64,000 nt of DNA from Rickettsiales bacterium UBA2645 (GTDB lineage Bacteria > Pseudomonadota > Alphaproteobacteria > Rickettsiales > UBA1997): the NCBI GenBank assembly GCA_002359655.1, contig DENL01000024.1:6067-70066 (forward strand), written 5' to 3'. Made by a program: the position numbers. Below, one piece after another: positions 24,001-30,000 of this stretch. How positions within the stretch are numbered: position 1 is the first letter of the stretch; the number at the start of each line of letters is the position of its first letter.

Positions 24001-27000
24001 GCGAGTATTGTTGCAGTTGATGAAATCGAAATGAAAGACACTAACAAATATGGTATCATCAAACTTGATGGTGCCGAAAAAATTATTGATATGGTTGAAA
24101 AACCAAAACCAGAAGTTGCTCCTTCAAATTTAGCGATCACCGGTCGCTACATTTTGCAGCCAGAAATTTTTGAATATCTATCAAAATTTGAAATCGGCTC
24201 AGGTGGGGAAATTCAGTTAACTGACGCCATGAAATCGATGTGTAAAACTCATCCTTTTTATTGCAAAAAAATTAACGAAGTTCGTTTTGATTGTGGAAAT
24301 GTTCTTGGATATCTCGAAGCAAATATCGCCTTTGCTCTTGCTAACGAAGCGACTGAAAATGACGTAAAAAATATTTTAAAAAAATATTCAAACTAAAAAC
24401 CTCTTCATACTTATACTTTAGTTAAAGTCAGAAATCCTTCTCAAAAGCCCGCCTCTAAAATTTAGTAATAAAAAATAATCAATTAATTCAAAAACTATGA
24501 AAACAGCTTTAGTATTTCCAGGTCAAGGTTCACAAGTGGTCGGAATGGGAAAAGATCTTGCAGAAAATTTTTCTCACGCGCGTGAAGTTTTTGAAAAGGT
24601 AAACGATATTTTGTCAGTCAATCTTTCAAAAATTATGTTTGAAGGACCATCTGAAGAGCTAACTAAAACTGAAAATACTCAACCAGCTTTGATGGCAGTT
24701 TCAATTGCTTTGATCGAAATTTTGGAAAAAGATTTTGGTAAAAAAATTACCGATCTTTGCTCTTTTGTTGCTGGCCATTCTCTTGGCGAATATTCAGCAC
24801 TTTGTGCTGCCAAAGCAATTAGTCTTGAAGAGACTGCAAAGCTTTTACAAATTCGTGGTCGAGCAATGGCAAGGTGTGGAGAAAAAACGCAAGGTGCAAT
24901 GGCAGCAATTTTGGGAGTTGCAGTTGAGGTTGCAGAAGAGATCGCGCGCGAAGCAGCACAAGGTGAAATTTGTCAAATTGCTAACGATAATTCTGTGGGG
25001 CAGGTAGTAATTTCTGGATCAAAATCTGCGATCGATCGCGCTTTAGAAATTGCAAAAGTTAAAGGTGTAAAACGCGCTATTGCACTTCCAGTAAGTGGCG
25101 CATTTCATTCTCAATTGATGGTTGAAGCGCAAAATGAAATGAAAACTGCACTCGCAAATTCTGAAATAAAAACTCCAATCGTATCGCTAATTGCAAATGT
25201 CACAGCTGATATAGTTTTGGATCCAAATCAAATTCGTGATCTTCTAACTAAACAAATTACTGGATCAGTTAAATGGCGTGAAACCATGCTATTATTATCT
25301 GCGCAAGGTGTAGAAGAAATTATAGAAATTGGATCTGGAAAAGTTTTATCAGGATTGGTTTCAAGAACTTGCGTCGATATGAAGTCAAAATCTATTCAGA
25401 ATTTTCAAGATTTAAGATCTTTTATTTCTTAAAAAAACTCTGATTCAATTTGGTTTATTTCAAGATTTGACCCTTGTTTTTTAGATGAAAAAAAAGAGAA
25501 TCAATCTAGGAGAGTGACAAAAATCAGACGCTTCAACTTAGCCTTAAACTTTATCGATAACTTAGAAGATTTTTACACTTTTCTCCATTTTTACCGCCTT
25601 GAAATAGAGATAGATACTTATCGCCTTTCTCATCGCTAAAGTTTTTAAAATTCCAAACTTCGGAGGGTTATTTATACAATGTCAAATATAGTCAATGGTA
25701 AAGTTAAGTGGTTCAATGACGAAAAAGGTTTTGGATTTATTGAACAAGAAAATGGCAAAGATGTCTTTGTCCATTATAATTTTATAAATGGTAATGGTAG
25801 AAAAACTTTACAACAAGGACAGATTGGTTACTATGGAAATTGTAAATGGTAAGAAAGGTTTGCAAGCTGAGAACTTTACAGCTGCAAGCTAAATGTTTTA
25901 TAGCTGTCGTCCCTTAAGATTAAATTATTTGGGTGGCAGCAACTGAATTTTTTTGGATATTTTTTAACTAACTATTTTAAAAAATAATTAGTTACTATTA
26001 CTAATGGTGGAGATAAACGGGTTCGAACCGATGACCCCCTGCTTGCAAAGCAGGTGCTCTACCAACTGAGCTATATCCCCTTTTTAGAAGTGAAATGGTT
26101 TTTTATTGCAATGTCCTGAAATAAAGATGTGATGATTTCAAAGCCAAGAAGCGCGCGCAAATTAAATTGGCATAACAATTTGTCAAAGTGTTTTTAATGT
26201 TTTTTAAAGAGAAAATTTTGAAAAGTTTTTGTGAAAAAAATCTAAAGAAAGCTTTTAGCTTAATTGAACTTTCTATAGTAATTGTTATCGTTTCAATTTT
26301 GATAACTGGAGCTTTATCGGTTTCAGTAAACGCAATTAATAGTGCAAAAAATAAAATTACTAAAGATCGGATTACAGAAATTTACAAAGCTTTGGGTAAC
26401 TATGTGGTCGTCAATAAAAAATTACCTTGTCCAGCTCCGATCACGGATACTAAATCTATCACTACGACTTATGGAACTTCTTTAGCAACATGTGCTGCCA
26501 CGACTGGAGTTGTAGCCTATCCATCATCAACAAATTTACTTTCTGGAATGTTACCAGTAAAAACCTTGGGCCTTCCACTTGATATGGCTGAAGATGGTTT
26601 TGGTGATAAGTTTGAATATATTGTTGATCTTAATTATACAATTGCTAGTGCTGGAACTGCTGTAACTTCTGGTGTTGGTGATTTTGGAACTTCTACAACA
26701 GCTAACATATCGATTAAGGAAAAGCCTAATACAACAGATATAACCATAGAAACCACAGCTGTTTTTGCTATTGTGAGCCTTGGTGCAAATAAATACGGTG
26801 CTTACGGATATGATTCTAGCACGTCAAACACAGCTCCCACTGATGCACAAGAATTAAGAAATGTTACTCCCTCTTCTAGCAGCAACGCCACAGCAACATT
26901 ATATGTTTCTTCTGCAACCAGCGATGCTTTTGATGATATAGTTTTCTATAAAACCAGACAAACTTTTATTTCCGACTTTAACGCTTTATCTTTAATGCCT

Positions 27001-30000
27001 TGTTTGACAACAACTGAAACTCTTTATGGCGGAACGATTACTTGGCCTACTGCGTGGTACAATCAAGTTGTTACCGCAACCTCTCCAACCTGTTCGAGCC
27101 TGGGATATAGTGCTGGTCCAGTTAAGCCAACTAAAAGATGTGGTGCTTTTGGAGTTTGGGATGTGGTGATAAATCCTTGCCTTCAATAGCTTAAGCAGCT
27201 CTTACTCTTCTGTTTTCATTATTTTCGCGACGATCATCTCTTTTATCATTATTCCTTTTTCTATTGTCATCTTTTCCTCTCACTCTTGGTCTTCTGGAAA
27301 AAACTCTACGTTCAAAAGTTGTAATAATTATTACAAAAGCCGTTACTGCAGCATTGATTGAAAATAGCTTCAAAGCCAGTTCTTTCTCTCCAGAGTTGAT
27401 CAAATTATAAATCAAATAAAGTAGGGCTATGTTGTAAGATAGTCCGCAAGCTTTGCCGATTCTGCTGCTAATATTGTGTGATTTAAGATATCTATCTTGC
27501 CAGTTATGACGATGTCTTTGCTCTTTTTCTGCCATATCTATCAACTGAGCTACTGATCCAGGTAAAGCATCTTCAAATTTTTCTAAAATTTCTGATGAAG
27601 GAATAATATCTTTTATAGTTTCTGGTTTACGCGAGTTTTTATAATCGTTTCTTCTGTTTCTGTTATTTTGCATTTTATTTTTTTGAATTTTGTTTTGCTT
27701 TTTCAATGTCATTGCCAATGTCAAGCCAGTCTTTGTTTAGTGCGTTTATAGGATGAGCAAATGGATAGCTACTAAGTTTTGTGCTGGTAAATGGAATTAC
27801 GCAAATAAAGCCAGCAAAAAACTTACGAGCATACCTTACTAAAAAACGAATTTGATTGAATGACATATGAATTGTAATTAGTGGAAATGGGTTTTTGAAA
27901 GTAATGATTGATATGGTGTGGAGCTGCTTTCTAAGTTTTGCCAATTAAAAGCAAAGAGATTTTATTTTCGTGGATCAAGCTTTACAGAGTCTGTTTGTTT
28001 TTGGCGGAATTTAACTAGCTTTTGAGATAGCTTTTTATCAGATAAGGCCAAGATTGAAATTGCCAAAAGTGCAGAATTTTTCGCGCCGGCTTCGCCAATT
28101 GCTAGACAGCCAACTGGAACTCCAGCTGGCATTTGAGCAATCGATAAAAGAGAATCTAAACCTTTTAAAGTTTTGCTTTCAACTGGAACGCCAAGAACCG
28201 GCAAATCTGTCATCGCAGCCACCATCCCCGGAAGGTGTGCGGCTCCACCAGCTCCAGCAATAACTATTTTAACTCCTTTTGCTTTTGCTGATTCACAAAA
28301 TTCATAAAGTCTTTTTGTTGTGCGATGTGCTGAAACAACTTTAGCTTCATAAGCAACATTGAATTCATCCAAAATTTTGCAAGCATGTTGCATAGTCACA
28401 AAATCTGATTTGCTGCCCATGATTATTGAAATTAAGGGAACATTCATAAAAATTTAAAATAGTTATGTAGATTTTTTACGTACAGTCAGTACTAGAAATT
28501 ACTTGGCTAGGACAGCTATTATCATATAACCAATTGGCATTTCCGCTACCAGCTATGCCCTGAGAAGTTCCGCAGCCACAACTTTCTATTGTAGAAAGTT
28601 GACCATCTTTACAAGTTACCTGAATAATTCCTGAAGTTTTATTATCATGATTTTGATATTGGCATGCTTTCTTAGAAGAGCCATGCGACAAGGTGCCAAG
28701 AGAAAATTCAATTTTGTTATTACTAGGACATTTGCCCTTTAATCCATAACAATCATTACGATTATTTTTAGTTGCCAAGCAATAACCATCGCCGCTGTAT
28801 ATTTTAGAAGAATCATTGCAGCTTCTACATGCTAAACAATCATTACTAACACTCCAAGTACCAACTCCGTTAGAGTTTATACAGGTCATTGTTGGTGAAG
28901 CTGAAATTCTATCGGTAACATTTACTCCACAAGTACTATCCGATCCACCAGATCCAAAAGCATGACCATAACCACTTTTACAATTCAGTGTTGATGGAGA
29001 AGATCCCACATTTACGGTTGTCGTAGGCCCACTGTAATACGATCCTGAGCCATAATTTGCTCCACTAGTAAGCGAGCAAGTTATTTGGGAGCAAGCTGTT
29101 CCGCTGCTAAGAGCGTAGTAGTATTGGTCAATATTACTATTGCTTGACATTTTTTGACATTTATAAACTGGCATTGAATTAGAGCCATAATTGGAGCTTG
29201 AGCAAGAAGAAACTTTTATAGTTTTGTCTGCTGCAATAAATGAAGATAATATCGTCGAGGTTGTTGGATTTGCACCCAAGGTAGTACCGATTCTAGAATT
29301 ATTAACTGTACCAGCATTAGTAGCACATTGAATAACTGGATCACTCCACTTATAATTTGTATTACAATATCTGGTGACAATAAATTTACCATTTGTTCGG
29401 CCAGATGCAGAGTAGTCAGTAGCAGTTTGAGTAGCCTTATCATCTGAACCAACAACATTGCCACTAGTGTTATATGCGATGGTTTGAATATCGGTTGTTC
29501 CGGCAGAAATTGAATTCCATCTTATAGCTACTTTTCCATACTGGGAAGTTGAAAATGAGCTCTGACCAATACCTTCTCTGGTGTCTGTATCATATCCTGG
29601 GCATTTATTAACACAGCTTGATGAAGTATTAGTCCATACATTTGCAGTACCTCCTGCAACAGTAACAGACTGGCATGATCTGGTTGGAGCAGACTCAGCT
29701 GCTTTTGAAATACTAGGAGTCGGTGATATTGTATTGCCACTACTATCTTTTAATGCTGAGTAAGGATATGGGCTATATCCACTAATACACGTTCCAGTTG
29801 CTACAACCGATCCTCCAACATTTACGTTAGTAACAGCCGTCCAAGTTGCATTTCCATCATTTGAACCCGGATTGGTAATGGCATTACACGATGTTACGCA
29901 AGGGTTACGAATCTCACTCCAAGTTCCATCTGACAGACAATCTGCTTCTGGCTGAGAACCACCTAAAGCTTGGAAGAAACCAAGTTTAGTATTACAATAT

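Follow-up and report, generated by a model that had tools for sequence, protein, structure and literature searches.

The 64,000-nucleotide stretch of Rickettsiales bacterium UBA2645 analysed here (contig DENL01000024.1, positions 6,067 to 70,066; the window in the following) carries a gene for a type IV pilin-like protein that ends in a small four-cysteine module. Converging on it is a gene for a giant Cys-rich protein in which the same module recurs. In the mechanical list of open reading frames (ORFs), the pilin-like gene spans 26188-27189 on the plus strand and encodes 333 amino acids (aa). An NCBI gene call of the identical 330-aa protein (metagenome-assembled genome, MAG, GCA_009924125.1, contig RFSF01000002.1) uses the ATG at 26197, which is probably the translation start. 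Residue numbers of the pilin are counted from 26188. The same pilin sequence was found again in freshwater metagenome assemblies. The two genes and their parts lie as follows:

26197 to 27189, plus strand: modular pilin-like gene, 330 aa from ATG 26197 (mechanical ORF from GTG 26188)

26197 to 26253, plus strand: predicted leader peptide, class III (prepilin) signal, last residue Ala22 (PF07963 and TIGR02532 above cutoffs)

26254 to 26415, plus strand: alpha-1, from F23 to about N76, the hydrophobic helix for pilin polymerisation (AlphaFold2 helix at 25-76; profile of alignment A1)

26416 to 26976, plus strand: globular pilin head, aa 77-263 (alignment A1; predicted local distance difference test, pLDDT, about 80-98; Foldseek)

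26977 to 27186, plus strand: C-terminal Sushi/HRM-like module, aa 264-333 (invariant Cys and Trp, domain model, Foldseek, profiles, hhalign)

28476 to 34355, minus strand: 1959-aa Cys-rich exported protein with an N-terminal hydrophobic anchor or signal (ORF and translation)

28821 to 30908, minus strand: tandem Sushi/HRM-like module region, aa 1150-1845 of the giant protein (hidden Markov model, HMM; hhalign; BLASTP)

30222 to 30359, minus strand: best module copy in the giant protein, aa 1333-1378 (18.3 bits with the pilin-module HMM)

The N-terminus of the pilin reads MFFKEKILKSFCEKNLKKA up to the predicted cut and FSLIELSIVIVIVSILITGAL after it, with a leader that ends in ...NLKKA and a prepilin cleavage site predicted between A22 and F23. 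Both models of the N-methylation segment are matched above their cutoffs, PF07963 (N_methyl) with 25.0 bits (cutoff 21.2) and TIGR02532 with 25.0 bits (cutoff 16.3). An earlier sequence-only reading had taken the protein to be type IV pilin-like and proposed these two models as a check; both the models and the structural and profile comparisons below bear this out. The 117 family members compared at the cleavage site share the consensus A/[FY]SLIELS, where the slash marks the cut. Phe or Tyr stands at +1 in all 117 and Glu at +5 in 116 of them, which argues for selection on processing and filament assembly.

The AlphaFold2 model of the full-length protein, computed with the family alignment as input (pLDDT 89.3, predicted template modelling score 0.82), starts with a helix at residues 25-76, which leads into a head rich in beta structure and, at the C-terminus, a compact unit that is all-beta. 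It hence has the lollipop fold of pilins, an extended N-terminal alpha-helix on a beta-sheet head. Conserved features of the head are LPCPA, Cys81, the nearly invariant Cys102 and FDD248-250 (alignment A1), and no Pfam family covers it. In Foldseek, the best full-length match was the type IVb pilin 9iuf_A of enterotoxigenic Escherichia coli (ETEC; E 0.034), followed by the gonococcal pilin; the other matches of the full model align to the C-terminal unit. Past alpha-1, similarity to pilins is weak, with a template modelling (TM) score of 0.28 by query length and 0.43 by target length. Among PDB sequences, the family profile matched type IV major pilins only, via alpha-1 (E 9e-5 to 4e-4).

A prepilin-like segment of this kind might also belong to a pseudopilin of a type II secretion system (T2SS) or of another non-adhesive type IV filament, which would be periplasmic and in which the Cys module would contact a substrate or the secretin. 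Some homologues carry the source names 'type II secretion system protein', 'GspH family' or 'PulG', and Castelli et al. treat the type IV pilus and the T2SS jointly for Rickettsiales. The N-terminal 60 residues also match the GspG model TIGR01710, but weakly, with 20.4 bits against a cutoff of 88.85 and over the N-terminal helix only; the GspH model TIGR01708 behaves alike (13.6 bits, cutoff 80, helix only). Against a pseudopilin, moreover, stand the lack of any T2SS pseudopilin among the PDB sequence matches, the lack of adjacent gsp genes at all scanned loci, and the properties of the family itself: a mature protein of about 310 aa that comes with tandem paralogues of its own family and with distal add-on domains does not resemble the GspG-K sets. 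We therefore consider a pseudopilin rather unlikely. Because Foldseek and the PDB profile search give pilins, and the GspG and GspH models stay far below their cutoffs, the N-terminal two thirds of the protein are a pilin module of unusual size.

The C-terminal unit reads C272-x29-C302-x3-GY-x10-C318-x3-G-x-W324-x6-C331, that is, four conserved Cys with a Trp between the third and the fourth within about 60 residues, as in Sushi domains. The sequence-only reading had seen this overall pattern correctly and had miscounted two of its gaps, as x27 and x2. In 35 homologues of 41-68% identity, C272, C302, C318, W324 and C331 are invariant and G322 is nearly so. The pattern of the module is thus conserved and not due to chance. 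Further invariant residues in this alignment are C81, FDD248-250 and several Gly, Pro and Tyr, while C102 is nearly invariant.

Modelled in isolation, the module is all-beta (pLDDT 90.8). Its PDB neighbours in Foldseek are the sushi part of EphA2 and EphA4, the ectodomains of CRFR1/2, PTH1R, GIPR, GLP1R and the calcitonin receptor, the HormR domains of latrophilin and BAI, and beta2-glycoprotein I. Probabilities reach 0.98, but E-values are 0.13 or weaker and TM scores 0.5-0.57. In the viral library BFVD, 9 of the 11 best matches were complement-control or Sushi proteins of herpesviruses and poxviruses (E 0.26 or weaker), and the top of both lists holds Sushi-type folds exclusively. This fold evidence is consistent with a Sushi-type module, but weak when taken alone. 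The module profile searched against PDB sequences gave complement C2b only, without significance (E 7.5).

More telling were profile comparisons in sequence space. A module HMM of 69 positions, built from 31 family members and searched against 1.84 billion representative proteins, gave 221 matches at E 0.001 or better. The best matches outside the pilins are long multi-repeat proteins, with P0121 at the top (28 repeats, E 4.7e-52), followed by P0122-P0126, P0128 and P0135. Most of these top matches carry Pfam labels above curated cutoffs, namely HRM (to 1e-60), Sushi (to 1e-28) and Ephrin_CRD, and several extend into fn3 and Tyr/Ser-Thr kinase domains. Two of the multi-repeat contigs have sparse, apparently split genes, and one of the two encodes a member of the eukaryotic SDE2 family; the contigs of the receptor-kinase proteins are probably protist DNA. 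Receptor-kinase-like proteins with 12-28 HRM/Sushi-type repeats were located at L006 10001-13762 and 19598-22351 and at L007 5126-12128. Named animal matches lie between E 1.9e-17 and 2e-6, the strongest being a Sushi domain-containing protein of Lottia gigantea (E 1.9e-17); the other named matches are SVEP1-like proteins, a CSMD1-like protein of Lineus and one protein each of Dreissena and of the ichthyosporean Chromosphaera.

Taken one at a time, repeats of P0121 and P0125 score up to 26-27 bits over the entire module, including the non-Cys positions WP, GY, PT[KR]R and G-x-W, and all ten Sushi repeats of the Lottia protein are matched in register with 5.7-15.2 bits each. When alignments were compared by hhalign, the module alignment matched the Lottia Sushi repeats with 90.1% probability (E 1.6e-6) and the P0121 repeats with 96.8% (E 2.7e-10). 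From these comparisons, we place the module in the Sushi/HRM superfamily, as a genuine member that has diverged and is closest to the repeat type of protist receptor ectodomains, and the protist-type receptor-kinase repeats as its closest non-bacterial relatives.

The giant protein contains 103 Cys (5.3%), and its gene ends 1.29 kb downstream of the pilin gene in convergent orientation, with a DUF2335 gene and purE between the two. No Pfam family reaches threshold in it (PF00084, E 2.1). The sequence-only reading had proposed that the module recurs in tandem at about residues 1340-1590 and that this region be compared with the pilin C-terminus; HMM, hhalign and BLASTP all agree with it. BLASTP of the pilin against the giant protein gave E 0.008 (aa 1353-1379) and E 0.033 (aa 1465-1487), in addition to the 18.3 bits of the best module copy. 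The alignment of giant orthologues was also cut at Cys landmarks, and each segment was compared by hhalign with the profiles of the pilin module and of the P0121 repeats:

Segment M1, aa 1150-1261: 1% with the pilin module, 83% with the P0121 repeats

Segment M2, aa 1262-1379: 91.7% with the pilin module, 96.3% with the P0121 repeats

Segment M3, aa 1380-1488: 94.1% with the pilin module, 95.7% with the P0121 repeats

Segment M7, aa 1758-1845: 72.6% with the pilin module, 82.1% with the P0121 repeats

Segments M4-M6 gave weaker values, and four control segments elsewhere in the giant Cys-rich protein gave 5% or less. Eukaryote-type repeat proteins align directly with aa 1171-1694 in BLASTP (E down to 1e-15). 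Giant orthologues are present in ten other loci at the same position relative to the pilin gene; they have 1857-2095 aa, are 33-59% identical to the window protein and keep most Cys positions throughout the 11 sequences, and seven of the ten orthologues show module matches. The N-terminal 1150 residues of the giant protein are Cys-rich too, and the Sushi/HRM-like repeats account for aa 1150-1845 only. The linkage of the two genes is embedded in a conserved order of NtrC-like regulator, GalU, FabD, tRNA-Ala, pilin, small gene, PurE, giant protein, MurD and Rpe, which holds in relatives whose pilins are only 45-50% identical.

The assignment to the Sushi/HRM superfamily has to be weighed against the signature databases. 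PF00084 (Sushi, gathering score 20.7 bits) does not match the pilin, PF02793 (HRM, gathering score 26.2 bits) matches neither the window pilin nor its module, and Pfam and NCBIfam scans of pilin and giant protein for Sushi gave nothing at threshold. Of 31 isolated family modules, 12 matched HRM (best E 4.5e-4), one matched Ephrin_CRD and one matched Sushi (E 0.013); none of these matches reached the curated cutoffs. The sequence-only reading had called the module eukaryote-type and Sushi/CCP-like and had suggested PF00084 as the test: the likeness holds by profile search and hhalign, whereas PF00084 fails on the window protein and the nearest Pfam model to the module family is HRM. Might the likeness then be convergent, with a small disulfide-rich bacterial domain that shares neither ancestry nor a eukaryotic origin with Sushi and HRM? 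That Sushi and HRM stay below cutoff on every family member, that Foldseek E-values and the PDB sequence profile lack significance, and that scores summed across many Cys-rich repeats may be inflated would fit such convergence. However, single eukaryote-type repeats score over non-Cys positions as well, the hhalign E-values contrast with the 5% or less of other Cys-rich segments of the giant protein, and its module region is tied directly to eukaryote-type receptor ectodomains. Convergence hence seems to us very improbable, and current Pfam thresholds miss the pilin module.

The window gene belongs to a large family. A protein search returned 209 full-length homologues of about 310-340 aa, whose named sources are Rickettsiales, Pelagibacterales or Pseudomonadota MAGs, and at least 143 encoding loci, 78 of them retrieved, emerged from a scan in which each GTDB species was represented by one genome. 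Nearly all of these come from lake-water MAGs of Rickettsiales or Alphaproteobacteria (Mendota, Erken, Loclat, Baikal, Zurich), and one (L027) from a 1.2-Mb single contig named Rickettsiales bacterium UBA1997. Together with L004 and L005, 80 loci were scanned. They contain 147 prepilin-like ORFs, 108 of which carry the module, and many loci have 2-5 tandem paralogues. The term 'orphan', used for the gene in the sequence-only reading, is therefore wrong for the family.

In longer relatives of 540-1110 aa, the Sushi-like module is followed by one or two further domains, of the type Gly_rich_2 (PF21722), and is hence a connector and not the terminus. Gly_rich_2-bearing members are P0129, P0163, P0168, P0161 and P0103; examples lie at L035 11015-12931 and 13074-14969. 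Distant relatives of 240-270 aa have the LPCP head motif and lack the module. Since some relatives add Gly_rich_2 and distant ones have the head without the module, the family shows the pattern expected of a pilin scaffold with grafted modules. The earlier suggestion of a module at the tip thus fits the C-terminus of the window protein but not these longer relatives.

Taken together, we favor, with a probability of roughly 60%, that the gene product is a modular type IV pilin of three parts, with a eukaryote-like binding module on display by which the cell would attach to a host. A prepilin peptidase would cut the class III signal peptide after Ala22, and mature F+1 and E+5 would sit on the hydrophobic helix, the part of the subunit that is buried in the core when type IV filaments are packed. 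The head of about 190 residues could then make up the filament surface, from which the 60-residue C-terminal domain, as a homologue of Sushi/CCP and HRM repeats, would point outward as a protein-binding module. Two disulfides, Cys272-Cys318 and Cys302-Cys331, may hold it together, if the pairing of Sushi domains applies. The module would bind a protein or glycan on a eukaryotic partner, to which the filament would most likely attach the cell, and the linked giant surface protein, as a second carrier of the same repeats, would probably act alongside the pilin. The retained Glu at +5 and the tandem copies of the same family suggest that the subunits are built into the filament body, where they could be alternative major subunits, rather than forming a single tip cap. 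As judged from sequence, a function as adhesin and in host mimicry is plausible. It would be in line with previous work in which type IV pili were found widespread in basal Rickettsiales, retained in basal and early host-associated ones, and proposed as an ancestral attachment device (PMC9352585, PMC10847448). The lifestyle of the lineage agrees with it as well: relatives of these freshwater Rickettsiales live on protists and algae, and members of the UBA1997 family have been described as epibionts with a persistent surface association with cryptophyte algae (10.1101/2023.01.31.526412).

Besides the missed Pfam models and the weak structural E-values of the module, two further points weigh against this reading: the residue at -1, and the lack of assembly genes around the pilin. 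The residue at -1 is Ala, where Gly is canonical. Ala is found at this position in 114 of the 117 family members and also in most of the unrelated prepilin-like ORFs of the same loci. It hence looks like a lineage trait of these prepilins and not a fault of the window gene, and its occurrence in other prepilin families of the same genomes suggests a lineage-specific prepilin peptidase that accepts Ala at -1. Some prepilin peptidases tolerate this residue. Other pilin families with Ala at -1 include 215-274-aa proteins in L047, L064 and L070, and the pattern is nearly constant family-wide (P0001-P0120; loci L047, L064, L070 and L074-L084).

As for assembly genes, Pfam annotation of essentially all window ORFs showed no pil or gsp gene in the 64-kb window or in about 16 kb beyond it; extension of the contig by 10 kb on each side added housekeeping genes only. 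That no such machinery lies nearby, as the sequence-only reading had stated, is thus confirmed across about 80 kb around the gene. Likewise, pilD, pilB, pilC and pilQ were missing from the flanks of the 78 related loci with the exception of L082, where a gene for an A24 prepilin peptidase lies 1.6 kb from two distant relatives, the sole machinery gene in related loci. Scans for machinery by regular expressions covered 1,183 ORFs in the 80 loci; the Walker-A matches proved to be UvrB, PriA and FtsK. The L082 PilD as a query gave 740 homologues, and the three examined belong to other alphaproteobacterial genomes, where two are surrounded by genes of sulfate assimilation and the third has a secretin beside it, with none tied to the window genome. 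Pilin genes are, however, commonly located far from machinery genes.

On these grounds, the prepilin-like N-terminus could be no more than a membrane anchor, and the protein an unprocessed periplasmic one that is tethered to the inner membrane, for example as a relic after loss of the pilus. The Ala at -1 and the loci without machinery, L082 aside, agree with this, as does the scattering of pilus genes in crown Rickettsiales through losses (PMC10847448). In contrast, a plain anchor has no need of the Phe or Tyr at +1 and the Glu at +5 that are kept in more than 99% of the 117 diverged homologues. Ala at -1 is shared with other prepilin families of the same genomes, and tandem duplication with accretion of domains is unlike a relic. 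A mere anchor is thus improbable, and we keep to the modular pilin as the preferred reading.

With regard to the origin of the module, one may speculate that freshwater epibiotic Rickettsiales captured a protist receptor-ectodomain repeat of the HRM/Sushi type and placed it on the exposed end of a pilin that diversified by tandem duplication and on a linked Cys-rich surface protein of about 2000 residues, such that the pilus would engage the host via the host's own type of module. We put forward this transfer from eukaryote to bacterium tentatively and consider it doubtful rather than likely. If it were true, a domain of eukaryotic descent would, as rarely happens, have become part of a type IV filament, and the epibiosis between Rickettsiales and cryptophytes would have a candidate basis at the molecular level.

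Directly upstream of the pilin gene, two elements were located:

26005 to 26080, minus strand: tRNA-Ala (TGC), found by ARAGORN about 115 nt upstream of the pilin gene on the opposite strand

26154 to 26187, plus strand: upstream motif CGCGCAAA-N18-TTGTCAAA, shared with L004, L005 and L021 only

The same tRNA-Ala sequence precedes the pilin genes in L004 and L005, so the adjacency of pilin gene and tRNA-Ala that had been remarked on before is conserved in relatives, with a gap of about 115 nt in the window. In four distinct loci (L004 9937, L005 7735, L021 1368 and the window), the motif, with a spacer of N18 or N19, precedes the first pilin gene by 17-64 nt, and it is a possible promoter or operator. 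It does not match sigma-54 spacing. A TGGCAT-N-TTTGT element considered as a sigma-54 promoter was rejected for its wrong spacing and its lack of conservation in L004, and a scan for sigma-70 promoters and terminators gave no excess of sites over shuffled sequence. A CspA-like cold-shock gene at 25680-25893 on the plus strand has a frame that ends in ...QQGQ and a stop, with the expected C-terminal part continuing in another frame; it appears frameshifted, either as a pseudogene or by an assembly error.

Elsewhere in the window, genes of type IV secretion (TrbI/VirB10, VirB8 and CagX/VirB9) are scattered at 19865-21181 and 46827-48571, which presumably corresponds to the dispersed rvh system of Rickettsiales. 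A 765-aa ankyrin-repeat protein is encoded at 60957-63254 on the plus strand, and of two leucine-rich repeat (LRR) proteins in this genome, one lies at 9041-9898 on the minus strand and the other at L094 21940-22604. VirB8/9/10, ankyrin and LRR proteins are typical of host-associated Rickettsiales, and their presence in the window favors such a lifestyle here. A cluster at 11989-16501 on the plus strand, with an Acyl_transf_3+SGNH protein, an AlgI-like MBOAT protein and an AlgX-like SGNH protein, looks like a module for O-acetylation of a cell-surface polysaccharide. The ORFs at 51146-51820 (minus strand, 224 aa) and 54611-56068 (plus strand, 485 aa) had no Pfam match at E 1e-5 or better.

Rickettsiales are a standard case of the passage from free-living or surface-attached to obligate intracellular life. 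For their attachment to hosts, type IV pili have been suggested as the ancestral device, although no adhesive subunit was singled out (PMC9352585). The pilin family described here provides a concrete, testable candidate for such a subunit, with at least 143 loci, a linked giant protein and a module closest to eukaryotic receptor ectodomains. It also shows that domains of the Sushi/HRM type occur in bacteria below current Pfam detection thresholds.

Among eukaryotic domains, the pilin module shares with Sushi/CCP/SCR (PF00084), as found in complement regulators, CSMD and SVEP1, the four Cys, the G[YF] after the second Cys, the G-x-W between the third and the fourth and the length of about 60 residues. 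It differs by an extra conserved Trp-Pro between the first and the second Cys, and by being present as a single copy on a bacterial pilin, whereas Sushi/CCP domains form strings of repeats on eukaryotic secreted or membrane proteins. HRM/HormR (PF02793) of class-B and adhesion receptors coupled to G proteins gives the nearest Pfam model and, together with the sushi part of Eph receptors (PF25599), the best Foldseek matches. The pilin module has four Cys, against six in a canonical HRM, and lacks the N-terminal helix of the latter. The whole-module consensus C...WP..aG....C..GY.G.PTR.C...G.W.....C is shared with the protist-type receptor kinases P0121, P0125 and P0135, which, unlike the pilin, have 12-28 repeats in tandem, with fn3 and a Tyr/Ser-Thr kinase after them.

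With type IVb pilins such as ETEC CFA/III or longus (PDB 9iuf) and with type IVa major pilins, the window protein has the lollipop architecture in common. It is much longer than these pilins, has Ala at -1 and lies outside any bundle-forming or type IVb operon. Modular pilins with a grafted binding domain are an established class, with 264 architectures surveyed and the adhesin PilB of Streptococcus sanguinis as the best-studied case (PMC8179133). The window protein agrees with the definition given there by Raynaud et al. (2021), a pilin module joined to a domain that is not pilus-specific. Like S. sanguinis PilB (pilin and vWA) and PilC (pilin and lectin) and like ETEC CofB, it would combine an N-terminal pilin module with a C-terminal binding module, and the type of the added module is likewise one common to eukaryotic adhesion proteins. 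Adhesive function has been demonstrated for S. sanguinis PilB and is predicted for the window pilin. Unlike known modular pilins, the protein has a large head of about 190 aa and tandem paralogues of the same family in Rickettsiales, and its 60-residue Sushi/HRM-like graft is undetected by signature databases, with Sushi not mentioned in the main text of the survey (PMC8179133). Modular pilins as such are hence already known, whereas a Sushi/HRM-like pilin module was previously unrecognised, and their catalogue gains a eukaryote-like module that signature-based surveys would miss.

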